Source of the DNA: a virus | Taxonomy: Duplodnaviria; Heunggongvirae; Uroviricota; Caudoviricetes | Length of the DNA: 5,965 bases | IMG/VR virus record: IMGVR_UViG_2695420564_000014 | Coordinates: 1 to 5,965 of that record | Direction: 5' to 3' (one strand) | Shown: positions 1-5,965 of the stretch, in pieces | Layout of the letters: the number at the start of each line of letters is the position of its first letter | How positions within the stretch are numbered: position 1 is the stretch's first letter | Program-made: the position numbers and the translations under genes | Notes under the pieces: model-generated | Seen by the model: the letters and a program-made list of their open reading frames with translations, nothing else | What the model was told of the DNA's origin: nothing | Database searches by the model: none

Positions 1-67
1 GTGAATTTCCTCAAAAGTCAGCGGGGCAAAAGCGCCAAAAAACGGCAGATTGCCGAAAAAGGCCGCA

Positions 68-96
68 ATTATACACAAAATCCCTGAGTTTGTCGG
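68..96 (-). promoter_or_regulatory. Candidate sigma70-like promoter on the minus strand (-35 CCGACA, 17-bp spacer, -10 TATAAT), firing toward the window's left edge
   Basis: Reverse complement of 68-73 is a perfect TATAAT; reverse complement of 91-96 is CCGACA (4 of 6 matches to TTGACA) at 17-bp spacing. No downstream ORF is visible inside the window. Confidence 0.2.
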
Positions 97-223
97 GGGT
101 ACTGCTGATTTTAGACGACGATCGTTTTCATTTGAAAGACAACGTAAAAAGAAAATAGTCTTTTTTCCTCCATTTATTATTTAAGCTAATGTTAAAGCTC
201 TTCTTGTTCTTTTTNAAACCAAT

Positions 224-595
224 ATGATCGACGGTTATGAACTTACGCGCATAAAAATCAGACAGGACGTGGCGGTCAAAGGCCCGGCCACCTTTATCTC
301 CGGGAATAACCGGACAGAGCAGGCAACGGGTATCTATCTTATTGGCGCCGGAGACTGCATTCGCCTGGAATGCGGACTGAGCGCCCTGGAACTGTTTGCC
401 AGCGGGGCGATTCGTCTTGCCGGAGAGACATTCAATATTGCGGCCAGAGGCGATGGCGTGATCACAACTCAGGGAAAACTGGGCCTGAATCCTTCTTCAC
501 CGGGCGAACCGGCCACTCCGCCGGGCAAGGATTACAAAAAGGAACTCACCACGCTGGTGAGTCAACTGTTTCCCGAAAAGGATAAATCATCATGA
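224..595 (+). CDS. Hypothetical protein, 123 aa, unplaced; Gly-punctuated beta-strand-like repeats and a Pro/Lys-rich C-terminal tail
   Basis: ATG at 224 to TGA at 593-595, which overlaps the ATG at 592 of the next ORF (ATGA). No Shine-Dalgarno motif upstream. An in-frame TAA at 182-184 blocks upstream extension. Translation shows alternating hydrophobic stretches broken by Gly (GIYLIGAGDCIRLECGLSALELFASGAIRLAGETFNIAARGDGVITTQGK). Codon usage resembles the neighbouring genes. I do not recognise a family. Confidence 0.4.
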   Translation: MIDGYELTRIKIRQDVAVKGPATFISGNNRTEQATGIYLIGAGDCIRLECGLSALELFASGAIRLAGETFNIAARGDGVITTQGKLGLNPSSPGEPATPPGKDYKKELTTLVSQLFPEKDKSS

Positions 596-743
596 AAATC
601 TACCCTNTGATGTTTTGCTGGCGCTCATGTTGCTGGTCGGGCACTGGTACGAAAACCGGGAAAATTCCTCAGATGTCAGCAAGGCACCAGTCCCGTTTGG
701 TTTTTCTTCTCTGCTGGAGCCTTATCGTTTTATTCCTTTGTAG
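592..743 (+). pseudogene. Disrupted or gapped head-tail connector gene (gp6-like adaptor family); only the C-terminal ~44 codons are recognisable
   Basis: ATG at 592 (MKIYP) is followed by N at 607. Downstream the only sensible frame is a different one (609-743, ending TAG 741-743), translating DVLLALMLLVGHWYENREISSDVSKAPVPFGFSSLLEPYRFIPL, which resembles the C-terminus of gp6-like connector proteins. That frame has a TGA at 558-560, so it cannot extend upstream. The ORF-track reading 592-774 (MFCWRSCCWSG...) looks out of frame. Confidence 0.45.
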
Positions 744-751
744 GAGGAGAC

Positions 752-1090
752 ATGCAGGCGGGCAGATTACGTGATCGCGTAATTATTCTGAATGTCACCA
801 CCGCCCGCTCTCCGTCAGGGCATCCGGTGGAGACGGTGACGGAGGGAGCTACCGTATGGGCAGAAGTTAAGGGTATCAGCGGGAGGGAGATAATCTCAGA
901 CGGAGCAGAAACCGCTCAGGCTACGGTCAGAGTCTGGATGAGATTCCGGCGCGATGTGACAGCGACTTCACGTCTGAAAGTGCTGACCGGTGCATTTAAA
1001 GGGGCCATTCTGGGTATAGAAGGTCCACCAATACCGGATGCACGCGCTACCCGGCTTGAAATACTCTGCAGCCTGAAGGGGAATGTGTGA
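752..1090 (+). CDS. Phage head closure / head-tail joining protein (SPP1 gp16-like, Phage_H_T_join family)
   Basis: ATG at 752 with AGGAGGA Shine-Dalgarno at 742-748. The 112-aa product has the RDRV...VWAEV...VRVWMRFRRDV pattern typical of this family, and the gene sits in the expected position after the connector. Confidence 0.8.
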   Translation: MQAGRLRDRVIILNVTTARSPSGHPVETVTEGATVWAEVKGISGREIISDGAETAQATVRVWMRFRRDVTATSRLKVLTGAFKGAILGIEGPPIPDARATRLEILCSLKGNV

Positions 1091-1536
1091 TGGATTTCAG
1101 TCTTGATTTTTCCGGCCTGGCGGATATTGCACGGGATTTGGAGACGCTCAGCAGGGCAGAAAACAATAAGGTTCTGCGCGATGCCACCCGTGCCGGTGCT
1201 GAAGTTATGCGGGATGCAGTTGTTGAACGTGCGCCGGAGCGAACCGGGAAACTGAAGAAAAATGTGGTTGTTCTCACTCAGCGTTCAAAGCGTCGGGGGG
1301 AAATTATCTCGGGTGTCCACATTCGCGGACGGAACCTGCGAACCGGAAACAGTGATAACAGCATGAAAGCCAGCGATCCCCGAAATGCATTTTACTGGCG
1401 CTTTGTGGAGCTGGGAACGATAAACATGCCCGCGCATCCATTCATTCGCCCGGCTTTCGATACGACAGAGGAGCTGGCGGCGCAGGTTGCCATACAGCGA
1501 ATGAATCAGGCTATTGATGAGGTCTTAAGTAAATGA
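1090..1536 (+). CDS. HK97 gp10-family phage protein (tail completion / neck component)
   Basis: ATG at 1090 overlaps the upstream TGA (1088-1090) as TGATG; a GTG at 1087 is an alternative start. AAGGGG Shine-Dalgarno at 1074-1079. Product begins MDFSLDFSGLADIARDLETLS, with size and position matching HK97 gp10-like proteins. Confidence 0.78.
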   Translation: MDFSLDFSGLADIARDLETLSRAENNKVLRDATRAGAEVMRDAVVERAPERTGKLKKNVVVLTQRSKRRGEIISGVHIRGRNLRTGNSDNSMKASDPRNAFYWRFVELGTINMPAHPFIRPAFDTTEELAAQVAIQRMNQAIDEVLSK

Positions 1537-1877
1537 GGGAGGCCACACTGTATTCCCTGTTGTCTCAGCTGGCCGGAGGACAGGTTTATCCTTATGTGGT
1601 CCCGCTGACGGAGGGAAAGCCTGCGGTATCTCCGCCGTGGCTGGTGTTTTCTGTGGTGTCTGACACGGTATCTGATGTGCTTGATGGGCAGGCTGAATCC
1701 AGAATTACCGTGCAGATCGATGTCTGGGCGACAGTACCTGATGACGCAGATAATATTCGTGAGCAGGCGCTTGATGCGGTAAGAAAACTGGCACCCTCCG
1801 TTATTTCTAAAACGCAGGGTTATGATCCTGACTCCCGTCTGAGCAGAGCCACGCTTGAATTCCAGGTAATAGCCTGA
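1533..1877 (+). CDS. Phage tail terminator / tail completion protein (gpU-like or DUF3168-like, about 114 aa)
   Basis: ATG at 1533 overlaps the upstream stop as ATGA (coupled translation); stop TGA at 1875-1877. It lies immediately upstream of the major tail protein gene, and its size and the motif VYPYVVP...WLVFSVVSD...ITVQIDVWA fit small tail-terminator proteins. Confidence 0.65.
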   Translation: MREATLYSLLSQLAGGQVYPYVVPLTEGKPAVSPPWLVFSVVSDTVSDVLDGQAESRITVQIDVWATVPDDADNIREQALDAVRKLAPSVISKTQGYDPDSRLSRATLEFQVIA

Positions 1878-1897
1878 GGTCATTAATGATTTTACCC

Positions 1898-1925
1898 ACC
1901 CGCCGCTGGCGGGTTTTTTTATTTT
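1898..1925 (+). terminator. Intrinsic-terminator-like hairpin plus T-tract between the tail terminator and major tail protein genes
   Basis: GC stem CCCGCC (1899-1904) pairs with GGCGGG (1908-1913) around a 3-nt loop, followed by TTTTTTTATTTT (1914-1925). Confidence 0.5.
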
Positions 1926-1937
1926 CAGGAGACGAGT

Positions 1938-2642
1938 ATGTCCTCTAATTTTGAGCGTTCGCAACTGACGAAAATTATGATTTCGTCTGCACCGGTAACA
2001 GCAGAAACCCTGGATTCTGCCAGCTATCTTGGCCTGAGCTGTACAATCAAAGAGGTGCAGTTTACCGCAGGACAAAAGCAGGATATTGATGTCACCACGC
2101 TGTGTTCTGTTGAGCAGGAAAATATTAACGGTCTTGGGGCTGCTTCAGAGATTTCCATGTCAGGCAACTTTTATCTGAATGCTGCCCAGAACGCGTTGCG
2201 CAGTGCCTATGACAATGACACCACGTATGGCTTTAAAGTTATTTTTCCGTCAGGCAACGGATTTACCTTTATGGCAGAGGTGCGTCAGCATACCTGGTCT
2301 GCAGGAACCAATGGTGTTGTGGCTGCAACGTTTTCTCTGCGCCTGAAAGGTAAGCCTGTGCTGACGACAGAGCCGCTGAAAGTGAGGGTCGATTTAAAAA
2401 GCACGCTGCGGGTTGCTTCCGGAGCGAAACTTGAAATGGCGGTTGAGGCTGTGGGTGGTGTGCCGCCTTATTCTTATGCCTGGAAAAAAGGTGGTTCTCC
2501 TGTTTCCGGACAGACGGCGGCAACGTTCAGTAAGGCATCAGCAGCATCCGGTGATGCCGGTGCGTATACCTGCGAGATTTCTGATTCAGCGAGCCCGGTT
2601 AACAAAGTGACCTCCACTTCCTGCACTGTAACCGTCAGTTAA
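1938..2642 (+). CDS. Major tail (tube) protein with a C-terminal Ig-like domain
   Basis: ATG at 1938 with AGGAGA Shine-Dalgarno at 1927-1932; 234 aa. The position directly upstream of the G/T chaperone pair is the canonical major tail protein slot. The C-terminal ~85 residues (VGGVPPYSYAWKKGG...GDAGAYTCEISDSASPVNKVTSTSCTVTVS) have the hallmarks of Big_2/I-set Ig-like domains. Confidence 0.82.
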   Translation: MSSNFERSQLTKIMISSAPVTAETLDSASYLGLSCTIKEVQFTAGQKQDIDVTTLCSVEQENINGLGAASEISMSGNFYLNAAQNALRSAYDNDTTYGFKVIFPSGNGFTFMAEVRQHTWSAGTNGVVAATFSLRLKGKPVLTTEPLKVRVDLKSTLRVASGAKLEMAVEAVGGVPPYSYAWKKGGSPVSGQTAATFSKASAASGDAGAYTCEISDSASPVNKVTSTSCTVTVS

Positions 2643-2656
2643 TGAGGATGGATGTG

Positions 2657-3028
2657 ATGACTAAAAATATCCGTAATCTGGCACTGGCAACGATGTCGGG
2701 GTTTCGCCATAAAACCGTTGATGTGCCTGAATGGGAGGGAGCAACGGTTGTGTTACGGGAACCTTCTGCAGAAGCCTGGTTGCGCTGGCAGGAGATCGTT
2801 AAAGCAAAAGATGATGAGACACCGTTATCCGTTGCGGAGCGCGCCCGCCGAAATCTGGAGGCAGATGTTGAACTGTTCATTGATGTTCTGTGTGATACCG
2901 GACTGCAACCCGTATTTTCAGAGGATGATCGTGAACAGGTGATTGCCGTGTATGGCCCGGTGCATGCGCGGCTTCTTCGGCAGTCTCTGGAATTGATCAG
3001 TGATGCCGGCGAGGTTAAAAAAAAGTAG
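2657..3028 (+). CDS. Tail assembly chaperone, lambda gpG analogue
   Basis: Preferred start ATG 2657, preceded by GAGGA at 2644-2648; alternative in-frame ATGs at 2642 (overlapping the upstream TAA as TAATG) and 2648. Ends GEVKKK with TAG at 3026-3028, directly after the slippery A-run. It is an acidic ~120-aa protein between the major tail and tape measure genes. Confidence 0.78.
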   Translation: MTKNIRNLALATMSGFRHKTVDVPEWEGATVVLREPSAEAWLRWQEIVKAKDDETPLSVAERARRNLEADVELFIDVLCDTGLQPVFSEDDREQVIAVYGPVHARLLRQSLELISDAGEVKKK

Positions 3029-3330
3029 CGCTTCCGGGGATGCGTTTTCTGATGATGCTGGCGCTCAGGATGGGGCGCACATTGTCAGAGTTACGCCGGG
3101 AAATGTCCGCATCAGAAATCATGATGTGGGCAGAATTTGACAGGTTCAGCCCGCTGGGGGACGAACGGGCTGATTTCCGGGCTGCCCAGATTGTTTCAGC
3201 TGTTTACGGTGCGCAGGGGGTCAAAGTGTCACTGAATGATGCGCTTCTTCAGTGGGAGAAGGAGCAGACAGAAGGCGCTTCAGATCCATTTGCCGGACTG
3301 GAAAATGCGCTTTTAATAGTGTCTCAGTGA
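2657..3330 (+). CDS. Tail assembly chaperone G-T fusion (gpGT analogue) made by -1 frameshifting at 3019-3025
   Basis: After a -1 slip, decoding continues GTA GCG CTT CCG GGG ATG CGT... (V A L P G M R F L M M...), the frame of ORF 3040-3330 (T-like, MRFLMMLALRMGRTLSELRREMSASEIMMWAEFDRF...). The T-like ORF has no Shine-Dalgarno motif of its own and lies exactly in the -1 frame of G. Confidence 0.62.
3019..3025 (+). other. Programmed -1 ribosomal frameshift slippery heptamer A AAA AAG (G to G-T)
   Basis: The heptamer is in phase with the G frame (AAA 3020-3022, AAG 3023-3025) inside an A8 run (3017-3024), 1 nt before the G stop. The -1 frame is open from here to TGA 3328-3330. Confidence 0.6.
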
Positions 3331-3338
3331 GTCAACAT

Positions 3339-3361
3339 AACCGCTTCGGCGGTTTTTTTTC
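3339..3361 (+). terminator. Intrinsic-terminator-like hairpin (TTCG tetraloop) plus T8 tract between the T-like ORF and the tape measure gene
   Basis: Stem ACCGC (3340-3344) pairs with GCGGT (3349-3353) around loop TTCG (3345-3348), followed by TTTTTTTT (3353-3360). It lies 9 nt after the T stop. Confidence 0.5.
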
Positions 3362-3370
3362 GTCCGGAGA

Positions 3371-5304
3371 ATGAGTGTGGCGACATTACGTGAACTGATT
3401 ATTAAAATCTCGGCAAACTCCCGGTCATTCCAGTCAGAGATCTCCCGGGCTTCGCGTATGGGGCAGGATTACTACCGCACCATGCAGAACGGAGGCCAAC
3501 AGTCTGCTGCTGCCTCCCGTGAAATGCGGCGTGCACTGGCAGAAGTGACGGATCAGATAAATACAGCTAAATCTTCGGCACTGAATATGGCGGGGGCATT
3601 TGCCGGGGCTTTTGCTACCGGTCATCTTATTTCTCTCGCCGATGAGTGGAATTCAGTAAATGCCCGTCTGAAGCAGGCCTCACAGTCCAGTGATGATTTT
3701 CAGGCATCACAGCGTGAATTAATGGCGATCAGCCAGAGAACGGGGACGGCGTTTTCTGATAACGCCAGCCTTTTTGCCCGTTCTGCATCTTCCATGCGGG
3801 AGTATGGTTACAGTTCTGAGGAGGTACTGAAAGTCACCGAGGCGATCTCCACGGGCCTGAAATTATCCGGTGCCAGTACAGCAGAAGCCAGTTCGGTGAT
3901 CATGCAGTTCAGTCAGGCACTGGCGCAGGGAGTGCTGCGCGGTGAAGAGTTTAACTCGGTGAATGAGAACGGCGATCGTGTTATTCGTGCGCTGGCTGCG
4001 GGAATGGGGGTTGCCCGTAAGGATCTGAAGGCCATGGCGGATAACGGAAAACTGACCGCCGATAAGGTTGTTCCTGCACTGATTAGTCAGCTTGGGGCGT
4101 TGCGTGATGAATATGCAGCAATGCCTGATACTGTTTCATCCTCTGCAACCAAAGTTGAAAACGCCTTTATGGCCTGGGTTGGTGGTGCGAACGAGGCAAG
4201 CGGAGTGACAAAGACACTCTCCGGTGTGCTGAATGGTGTTGCAGACAATATTGATACCGTGGCTGCTGCAGCTGGCGCACTGGTTGCCGTCGGGGTAGCC
4301 CGATATTTTGGCAATATGGCGTCGTCTGCTGGATCTGCAACTGCCGGATTAATTACTGCAGCCAGAAACGAAGTGGCTCTTGCTGAAGCGCAACTTCGGG
4401 GGACACAGATAGCAACCGCCAGGGCGCGTGCGGCGGTTTATCGTGCGCAACAGGCGGTTGTTGCTGCTCGCGGTACCGAAAGGCAGGCCGCAGCAGAAGC
4501 GAAGCTGACAGCTGCCCAGGCGTCACTTACCCGTAATATTGCGGCCAGAACAGCGGCACAGACAACGCTGAATACTGTCACGTCAGTGGGGAGTCGTCTG
4601 TTAAGTGGTGCGCTGGGGTTGGTTGGTGGTGTGCCGGGACTCGTCATGCTGGGGGCGACGGCCTGGTACACGATGTATCAGAATCAGGAGCAGGCCAGAG
4701 AATCTGCACGCCAGTATGCCGCAACAATCGACGAAATTCGCCAGAAAACGTCGGCAATGTCGCTTCCTGAAGCGTCAGATAATGAGGAAAAGACGCGGCA
4801 GGCACTTGATGAGCAAAACAGGTTAATTGACGAGCAGAAAAGTAAGATTAAATCCTTACAGGAAAAAATTGCTGGCTATCAGTATGTGCTGGCAAACCCG
4901 GGCTGGACAACCGATAACGGTTTTATGATTAACCACATGACGTCGGTAAAAACTGTCACAGAAGGGCTTGCAGAAGCAACAAATCAACTGGCAGTTGAAC
5001 AGTCCCGTCTCACACAAATGCAGGGCAAAGCGCAATCCATTCAGGATGTGCTTGCCGGGCTGGAGGAGCGACGGGTGGCGTTGATCCGTCAACAGGCCGC
5101 GGAACAAAACAAAGCGTATCAGTCCCTGTTGATCATGAATGGGCAGCATACCGAGTTTAATCGCCTTCTCGGGCTCGGTAATGAATTACTTCAGCAGCGA
5201 CAGGGGCTGGTGAATGTACCGTTACGGCTACCACAGGCAACCCTGGATGATAAACAGCAGACTGCACTGAATAACAGCGAGCGCGAACTGGCTCTGTCCC
5301 GCCT
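3371..5304 (+). CDS. Tail tape measure protein, lambda gpH-like, 3'-truncated at the N-run
   Basis: ATG at 3371 (alternative GTG at 3377 is better spaced from GGAG at 3366-3369). Product is Ala/Gln-rich with long predicted coiled coils, a glycine-rich hydrophobic segment (SGALGLVGGVPGLVMLGATAWY) and an N-terminal region typical of lambda-family tape measure proteins. It is the long ORF after G/T. Tape measure character ends at 5304 (NNSERELALSR). Confidence 0.8.
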
Positions 5305-5310
5305 NNNGGN
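5305..5310. other. Ambiguous-base run (NNNGGN) marking an apparent junction between phage and host sequence
   Basis: Flanking coding content is unrelated: tape measure coiled coil on the left, sufB 3' end on the right. Confidence 0.6.
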
Positions 5311-5473
5311 GGATCAACTGTTTTACTGCCTGCAACGCGGGATCAGCGAAGAAGACGCCATCTCAATGATTGTTAACGGTTTCTGCAAAGATGTTTTCTC
5401 GGAATTGCCGCTGGAATTTGCCGTTGAAGCACAAAAACTTCTCGCCATCAGTCTTGAACATAGCGTTGGATAA
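5311..5473 (+). CDS. sufB: 3' end of the Fe-S cluster assembly scaffold gene sufB (last ~53 codons)
   Basis: Translation [53 protein letters not shown], stop TAA at 5471-5473. This matches my recollection of the enterobacterial SufB C-terminus and parallels the SufD C-terminal motif. It is followed 9 nt later by sufC, as in the suf operon. Confidence 0.8.
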
Positions 5474-5482
5474 GGAATAAAC

Positions 5483-5844
5483 ATGTTAAGTATTAAAGAT
5501 TTACACGTCAGCGTGGAAGATAAAGCTATTCTGCGCGGATTAAGCCTCGACGTTCGTCCCGGCGAAGTTCACGCCATTATGGGGCCAAACGGTTCGGGGA
5601 AAAGTACCTTATCGGCAACACTTGCCGGGCGCGAAGATTATGAGGTAACGGGCGGCACGATTGAGTTTAAAGGTAAAGATTTGCTTGAGTTGTCGCCGGA
5701 AGATCGTGCAGGCGAAGGCATCTTTATGGCCTTTCAGTATCCGGTGGAAATTCCTGGCGTCAGTAACCAGTTTTTTCTGCAAACGGCACTTAATGCAGTG
5801 CGTAGCTATCGTGGTCAGGACGCGCTCGACCGCTTTGATTTTCA
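5483..5844 (+). CDS. sufC: 5' portion of the Fe-S cluster assembly ATPase gene sufC (first ~120 codons), interrupted by N bases
   Basis: ATG at 5483 with AAGGA Shine-Dalgarno at 5472-5476. Product MLSIKDLHVSVEDKAILRGLSLDV.PGEVHAIMGPNGSGKSTLSATLAGREDYEVTGG... contains the Walker A motif GPNGSGKST and closely matches E. coli SufC as I recall it, up to DRFDFQ at the N positions. Confidence 0.88.
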
Positions 5845-5853
5845 NATNGANNN

Positions 5854-5965
5854 CGCGCTTGGCAAACTCCAGGAACAAAATATCGATAGCCTGCGCAGCG
5901 ACCTGCGTGAAAAAGGCATCCCATATACCACCGTTCGTAAAGAAAATAACTACGGCCTGAGCATC
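5854..5965 (+). other. Unidentified coding-like fragment, in frame with sufC but not sufC; open to the window edge
   Basis: Translation ALGKLQEQNIDSLRSDLREKGIPYTTVRKENNYGLSI has no stop. SufC should continue with its ABC signature and Walker B region here, and this does not. I cannot place the family. Confidence 0.2.

Follow-up and report, generated by a model that had tools for sequence, protein, structure and literature searches.

An orphan reading frame beside prophage tail genes, identified as the 3′ end of a type VI secretion vgrG gene in a chimeric viral record

Introduction

What is encoded by a short open reading frame (ORF) that lies among phage genes but resembles none of them? The question is raised by a 5965-nucleotide stretch of DNA catalogued as a tailed virus (IMG/VR record IMGVR_UViG_2695420564_000014, positions 1 to 5965; hereafter the window), in which an ORF of 123 codons runs from ATG to TGA on the + strand at positions 224–595, between two ambiguous bases, N215 and N607. 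A preliminary description, made from the letters of the window, correctly recorded this ORF and the bases that flank it, but left it as the one element without a clear assignment. It was placed immediately upstream of the connector gene of an HK97-like phage, and the candidates offered were a head decoration or fibre-like protein, a moron, or a fragment of a beta-helical spike-type protein.

Here, we show that the ORF is the last 123 codons, roughly the last fifth, of vgrG, an ordinary and already known gene. With a probability of about 93%, positions 216–595 are the 3′ end of the chromosomal type VI secretion system (T6SS) spike gene vgrG (tssI) of an Escherichia albertii-like bacterium, severed at the N215 junction. 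The biology adds nothing new, since vgrG–eag–rhs modules and the VgrG1 tip have already been characterised in structure and function. The main value of the analysis lies in quality control: the window's one 'unassigned' element is explained and a chimera is exposed.

The window is a mosaic of unrelated segments

Five segments of Escherichia chromosome, unrelated to one another, make up the chimeric window (table 1). Its non-ACGT characters stand at 215, 607, 5305–5307, 5310, 5845, 5848 and 5851–5853, and because yjdM–proP, vgrG, the prophage, sufBC and secD are far apart on Escherichia chromosomes, these sites, whether a single N or a ragged run, are joins of unrelated pieces. The ragged patterns at 5305–5310 and 5845–5853 look like consensus over short spurious overlaps.

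Table 1. Features of the window, in order of position.
Feature	Positions	Strand	Basis or remark
yjdM–proP intergenic DNA	1–214		match to E. coli
junction N, yjdM–proP DNA left, vgrG right	215		E. albertii vgrG match from 216 on
vgrG–eag piece	216–606		match to E. albertii NBRC 107761 contig (L004)
3′ end of T6SS spike gene vgrG/tssI	216–595	+	L004 match; in-frame VgrG core upstream in L004 and L001
last turns of gp5-type trimerisation beta-helix, residues 1–35	224–328	+	Pfam Gp5_trimer_C on P0001
conserved distal beta-strand module (blunt spike tip), residues 36–89	329–490	+	alignment; VgrG1 residues ~558–612; AF2
Pro/Gly-rich linker and C-terminal amphipathic helix, ending at conserved F116-P, residues 90–123	491–592	+	
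likely Shine–Dalgarno sequence AAGGA for eag	578–582	+	read from the sequence, 9 nt before ATG 592; probable
first five codons (MKIYP) of DUF1795 Eag chaperone gene	592–606	+	severed at N607
junction N, vgrG–eag DNA and prophage DNA, within the head–tail connector gene	607		prophage match begins at 608
prophage tail module	608–5300		99.7% identity to prophage in E. coli genomes
end of sufB and start of sufC	5311–5844		~94.7% identity to E. coli
part of secD	5854–5965		

The piece that carries the ORF (216–606) matches a contig of E. albertii NBRC 107761 (L004), which was recovered by a scan of genome contigs. The two differ by six mismatches in 391 nt (98.5% identical DNA), and the alignment breaks exactly at both Ns; the earlier suspicion that the DNA between N215 and N607 may come from a different genomic segment was well founded. 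Two other matches emerged from the same scan, in Aridibacter and Pirellulaceae MAGs, at 27–28% identity. Megablast and sensitive blastn searches of 5426 complete E. coli genomes with 216–606 gave no matches, and this segment is not E. coli DNA.

The housekeeping pieces (1–214 and 5311–5844) are ~90–95% identical to nearly all E. coli genomes. Such values agree with an Escherichia other than E. coli, for example E. albertii, and suggest that their source was E. albertii-like. Bases 1–214, however, are 100% identical to 'E. coli' strain 14EC007, a strain that may be misclassified or divergent. An Rfam scan of the whole window detected no RNA families.

Because the window is a chimera, gene order cannot be read across its N positions, and this applies equally to an apparent 700-aa tape-measure ORF. 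That ORF (3371–5473) is an artefactual fusion across the Ns at 5305–5310, in which a 1075-aa tape measure protein, represented by its first ~640 codons, runs into the last 54 codons of SufB.

The slot before the connector gene

Adjacency to the connector gene is an artefact of the same kind: E. albertii similarity stops at N607 and the prophage starts at 608. The prophage that matches 608–5300 is present in 897 E. coli genomes. Base 608 corresponds to a point 182 nt into its 318-nt connector gene, of which the window keeps the last 136 nt only. In the intact prophage, the major capsid gene stands before the connector, just as the preliminary description had said of HK97-like gene order.

Could the ORF nevertheless encode a protein of the adjacent HK97-like prophage, such as a head decoration, a fibre or a moron? 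In its favour stand the physical proximity of the two in the window and a beta-rich sequence punctuated by Gly, and nothing more; gp5-type beta-helices themselves have a phage ancestry. The adjacency, however, is made by the N607 junction. A tblastn search with the ORF against 50,697 phage records produced no matches, and a PHROGs search with the ORF was equally empty. Head decoration, fibre and moron are rejected as candidates, with no phage homologues found and with the capsid gene holding that slot in the intact prophage, and a phage protein has next to no probability.

An internal fragment of a longer reading frame

ORF 224–595 is a genuine coding sequence, and it is neither a complete gene nor a phage gene. 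The ORF is incomplete: no stop codon lies on its 5′ side and the frame is open back to N215 (..T-N-M), so that its apparent start is merely the first Met past the discontinuity. The ATG at 224 is codon 34 of a 156-aa protein annotated in E. albertii (P0001) and is an internal Met of the vgrG reading frame. The absence of a Shine–Dalgarno motif before the ORF, which had been noted at the outset, is explained by this: neither a Shine–Dalgarno sequence nor a purine-rich ribosome-binding site can be read before ATG 224, because the ATG is an internal methionine. The stop codon (TGA) is at 593–595.

That the frame is coding is far beyond chance, as similarity to E. albertii proteins reaches E 8.8e-72. 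Comparison with a 64%-identical relative (L001) gives pN 0.24 and pS 0.77; synonymous sites are saturated in this comparison and pN and pS are hence quoted alone. The low pN against a saturated pS indicates that the tip module has evolved under purifying selection.

Relatives identify the frame as vgrG

A word-indexed protein search returned two relatives of the ORF: P0001, which is 98% identical and 33 residues longer than the 123-aa fragment, and a 154-aa protein with 64% identity. Within the cluster of P0001, every member whose source organism is named comes from E. albertii, and one bears the name 'type VI secretion system tip protein VgrG, partial'. Two E. albertii entries, WP_423241012.1 ('bacteriophage T4 gp5 trimerisation domain-containing protein') and EOJ4717448.1 ('VgrG, partial'), are 98% identical over all 123 residues; they come from the same locus in the same species, and are themselves leftovers or partial calls of the vgrG frame, 94–176 aa long.

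The DNA upstream of these relatives supplies what the window has lost. In L004, the same frame continues upstream as VgrG core sequence with two stops within it (TIR*KTYMGSGFNELKFDDATGKEQVYIHAQKNMDTEVLNDQ), and the contig ends 552 nt upstream. In L001, the frame is uninterrupted upstream to the contig end, and the resulting 222-aa piece matches Pfam Phage_base_V and Gp5_trimer_C, as well as positions 422–512 of 513 in NCBIfam TIGR03361. The OB-fold (Phage_base_V) is thus seen in the upstream frame of L001 and, interrupted by stops, in that of L004; the window itself lacks the region.

When 1.84 billion representatives were searched exhaustively with HMMER, 42 relatives emerged, including the full-length proteins P0004 (666 aa), P0039 (712 aa) and P0007 (846 aa). 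All three have the architecture Phage_GPD, Phage_base_V and Gp5_trimer_C, so that the gp27-like hub domain is also present in relatives, and the match to the window ORF falls at or near the C-terminal end (residues 546–663 of P0004). The TIGR03361 model ('type VI secretion system tip protein TssI/VgrG') gives P0004 a score of 601 bits, and a Rahnella VgrG falls in the same cluster. P0004 (WP_413531051.1, annotated TssI/VgrG, from Rahnella/Enterobacteriaceae) is the closest full-length intact relative, with 49% identity over its C-terminal match, and like the relatives of the window locus it has DUF1795 and then a large Rhs downstream; Rahnella inusitata and plasmid-borne copies are relatives of P0004 in its 90% cluster and not P0004 itself.

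Solved structures agree. In a phmmer search, the fragment alone matches residues 528–639 of the 643 residues of Pseudomonas aeruginosa VgrG1 (PA0091; 4MTK, 4UHV) at E 1.9e-14, aligning end to end at ~37% identity. A profile of 19 relatives raises the match to 4MTK/4UHV to E 4.3e-38, and finds P. protegens Pf-5 VgrG1 (PFL_6094; 7Q5P) at E 1.5e-31, over residues 534–642 of 645. The fragment itself matches the P. protegens protein more weakly (E 2.8e-7 over residues 28–98), and this protein belongs to another genus and another T6SS cluster. Taken together, the L004 and L001 frames, the full-length relatives and the matches to solved VgrG1 establish the ORF as the last 123 codons of vgrG; the cut at N215 is an assembly or concatenation junction.

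Of the original candidates, the beta-helical spike fragment came closest: the ORF is a spike fragment, although the spike is bacterial VgrG of a T6SS and not a phage protein. The preliminary description had regarded confident homology to a known housekeeping protein as evidence against its reading, and confident homology to a known protein is found, both with E. albertii proteins and with solved VgrG1. It had also proposed Foldseek on an AlphaFold model and a protein search with genomic context; VgrG1 chains come out top in the former, and the latter leads to vgrG–eag–rhs loci.

Why, then, did the fragment appear to be an orphan? Pfam, NCBIfam and PHROGs scans of the 123-aa fragment return noise (Ufm1, E 0.23; RadD, E 0.2) or nothing, because the curated models end before this region and ~90 residues lie outside every one of them. 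TIGR03361 ends at residue 518 of the 666-aa P0004, which is earlier than Gp5_trimer_C. Since curated VgrG models omit the last ~90 residues, which solved VgrG1 structures do contain, a domain scan will leave a detached 3′ piece of vgrG looking like an orphan.

Anatomy of the spike tip

The fragment begins in the trimerisation helix and ends beyond the spike tip (table 1). On the longer P0001, Pfam Gp5_trimer_C (PF22178) reaches 42.8 bits (cut-off 30.9) over residues 1–68, a span that extends to residue 35 of the ORF. Residues 36–89 are the best conserved (AGxxIRLxCGxSAIELxAxGxINxxGKxFNxxxxGxGxINTxxGxLxLN), and G43, G61, T82, L86, N89 and F116 are invariant columns in the 19-sequence alignment. 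The Gly-punctuated, hydrophobic-alternating stretches and the Pro-rich tail that had first drawn attention are real, and fall on conserved columns of this alignment. Linker residues 90–101 are Pro/Gly-rich and, together with the following helix, align to VgrG1 residues 612–639; the linker of the window (NPSSPGEPATPPGK) is more Pro-rich than that of P. aeruginosa VgrG1 (NSGGASEVDAKGK).

An AF2 monomer model predicts strands at residues 45–50, 53–58 and 63–66 (pLDDT 84–91) and a helix at residues 102–115 (nt 527–568; pLDDT ~82). Overall pLDDT is 68, with residues 1–35 below 50, a moderate result that is explained by a chain expected to fold only as an intertwined trimer. In the Foldseek search with this model, VgrG1 chains rank first, yet the RMSDs are poor (~20 Å) because a single chain cannot recreate a prism made of three intertwined ones.

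Homology with the P. aeruginosa and P. protegens VgrG1 proteins indicates how the complete protein would work. Three copies of VgrG would intertwine into a beta-prism. By analogy, the end of this prism would be the docking site for the prePAAR/PAAR domain of the Rhs effector, whose gene is the second one downstream. The DUF1795 Eag chaperone would keep the class I prePAAR-TMD-PAAR-Rhs toxin soluble, and the T6SS sheath would, as in characterised systems, fire the loaded spike. On this model, the stretch of spike that receives the toxin's PAAR domain is probably the one encoded by the fragment; that the protein trimerises, binds PAAR and is secreted is in each case attributed by analogy with homologues.

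Not every relative ends at the tip. P0005, P0007 and P0008 carry a C-terminal extension after the tip module, either a glucosaminidase or GH108 with PG_binding_3. The extension of such 'evolved' VgrG effectors is absent from the window ORF, which stops 7 residues past F116; P. aeruginosa VgrG1 likewise has no C-terminal effector domain. In the 'evolved' P0005, P0007 and P0008, the tip module acts as the junction to the fused effector.

The downstream eag and rhs genes

The vgrG stop codon overlaps the start of the next gene as ATGA (592–595). The window retains five codons of this gene before N607, and its counterpart in L004 (1020–1451) starts MKTYPLPE..., encodes 143 aa and matches Pfam DcrB/DUF1795 (E 3.4e-13). 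A PAAR-DUF6531-RHS gene comes after DUF1795 in L004, L001–L003, L010 and L011, and the order vgrG–DUF1795–PAAR-Rhs is shared by all four loci with non-extended VgrGs (L001, L004, L010 and L011). The gene neighbourhood is thus vgrG–eag–rhs. At their N-termini, the Rhs proteins of L004 and L001 carry the motif AARxxDxxxH (FAARQGDDIIH in L004, FAARLKDDIIH in L001), a sequence known as the prePAAR motif in class I Eag-dependent effectors (PMC7773334).

Both characterised systems resemble this neighbourhood. In the VgrG1–EagR1–RhsA and VgrG1–EagT6–Tse6 complexes, effector and chaperone are found at the tip of the VgrG1 trimer (PMC8765631). P. protegens VgrG1, which partners EagR1 and RhsA, has the same gene order, vgrG–eag(DUF1795)–prePAAR/PAAR-Rhs. 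The gene for P. aeruginosa VgrG1, like the vgrG of the window, also neighbours genes for an Eag chaperone (DUF1795) and a prePAAR effector, and the complex of this protein with EagT6–Tse6 has been solved (6H3L/6H3N); its cognate effector, however, is the small class II toxin Tse6 and not an Rhs protein.

The association of all four non-extended examples with DUF1795 and PAAR-Rhs is the basis for a more speculative idea, in which the last ~90 residues, outside both Gp5_trimer_C and TIGR03361, may be a distinct, uncurated 'VgrG1-type tip module' that specifically marks spikes loaded with Eag-dependent prePAAR effectors. Another such idea is that the E. albertii remnant may be expressed as a stand-alone tip protein. 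We consider these proposals improbable.

One form of stand-alone expression can be weighed directly, namely a small protein of ~156 aa made from an internal start and acting as a miniature spike tip or an adaptor for PAAR. NCBI does annotate a 156-aa CDS in E. albertii, as a 'gp5 trimerisation domain-containing protein' (PGAP), and the fragment would keep the end of the trimerisation helix together with the tip module. Nevertheless, the upstream frame is plainly a stop-interrupted vgrG, the short relatives in databases are incomplete genes, found on short contigs or at the ends of contigs, and the ATG in the window has no Shine–Dalgarno sequence. Without the gp27 and OB-fold domains, moreover, such a protein would have no seat on the Hcp tube. 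A stand-alone role is very improbable, and the ORF is better read as the severed end of a vgrG.

State of the locus in E. albertii

Whether this vgrG is still in use is a separate matter. In L004, the vgrG frame contains TAG (355–357) and TAA (490–492), 200–300 nt upstream, in one draft genome. The eag gene is intact, while rhs is limited to 429 codons (prePAAR-TMD-PAAR-DUF6531 only) and adjoins pptA, followed by yddH–nhoA–yddE–narVWYZ. With two in-frame stops in vgrG and a truncated rhs in the type strain, the locus may be decaying, and in at least one strain of E. albertii it resembles an auxiliary T6SS effector island in decay. The island occupies 1–2762 of L004, at the yncH–pptA (RhsE-type) position.

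These features allow a different reading of the same 3′ end, as a dead relic in a decaying locus that encodes nothing functional in the source strain. The stops in the type strain, whose DNA is 98.5% identical to the window, and the truncation of rhs at codon 429 favour it, as does the fact that NCBI annotations of the frame consist of leftovers only (145–176 aa). The window differs from L004 by three non-synonymous changes (A22V, N28D and G78S) and two synonymous ones, a ratio that might hint at loss of constraint, but five substitutions are uninformative for dN/dS and too few to demonstrate relaxed selection. Against a relic, eag is intact in L004, the stops rest on one draft genome and the window carries no sequence of its own upstream of the vgrG fragment. 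On balance, we place the relic a little short of even odds; it concerns the fate of the gene in its source strain.

A search of the literature on T6SS in E. albertii found nothing specific. A syntenic yncH–pptA island in E. coli IMT16316 (L007, 3066–8877) holds a different, 702-aa vgrG, whose tip is 26% identical to the window ORF and which is followed by ISEc1/ISAs1-family (H-repeat) transposases in place of eag–rhs.

Observations on the prophage tail operon

Two features of the prophage segment may be recorded. The tail assembly chaperone gene ends at 3014–3028 with GTT AAA AAA AAG TAG, which contains a run of eight A, and the next ORF (3040–3330) lies in the −1 frame and is annotated 'tail assembly protein T' in E. 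coli; we take this arrangement to be the classic lambda-like G/GT programmed frameshift. GC-rich hairpins with a T run are present at ~1893–1925, after the gp17-like gene (cccgccgctggcgggttttttt), and at ~3339–3361, after the T gene (ccgcttcggcggtttttttt). To judge by their sequence, both look like candidate intrinsic terminators inside the tail operon.
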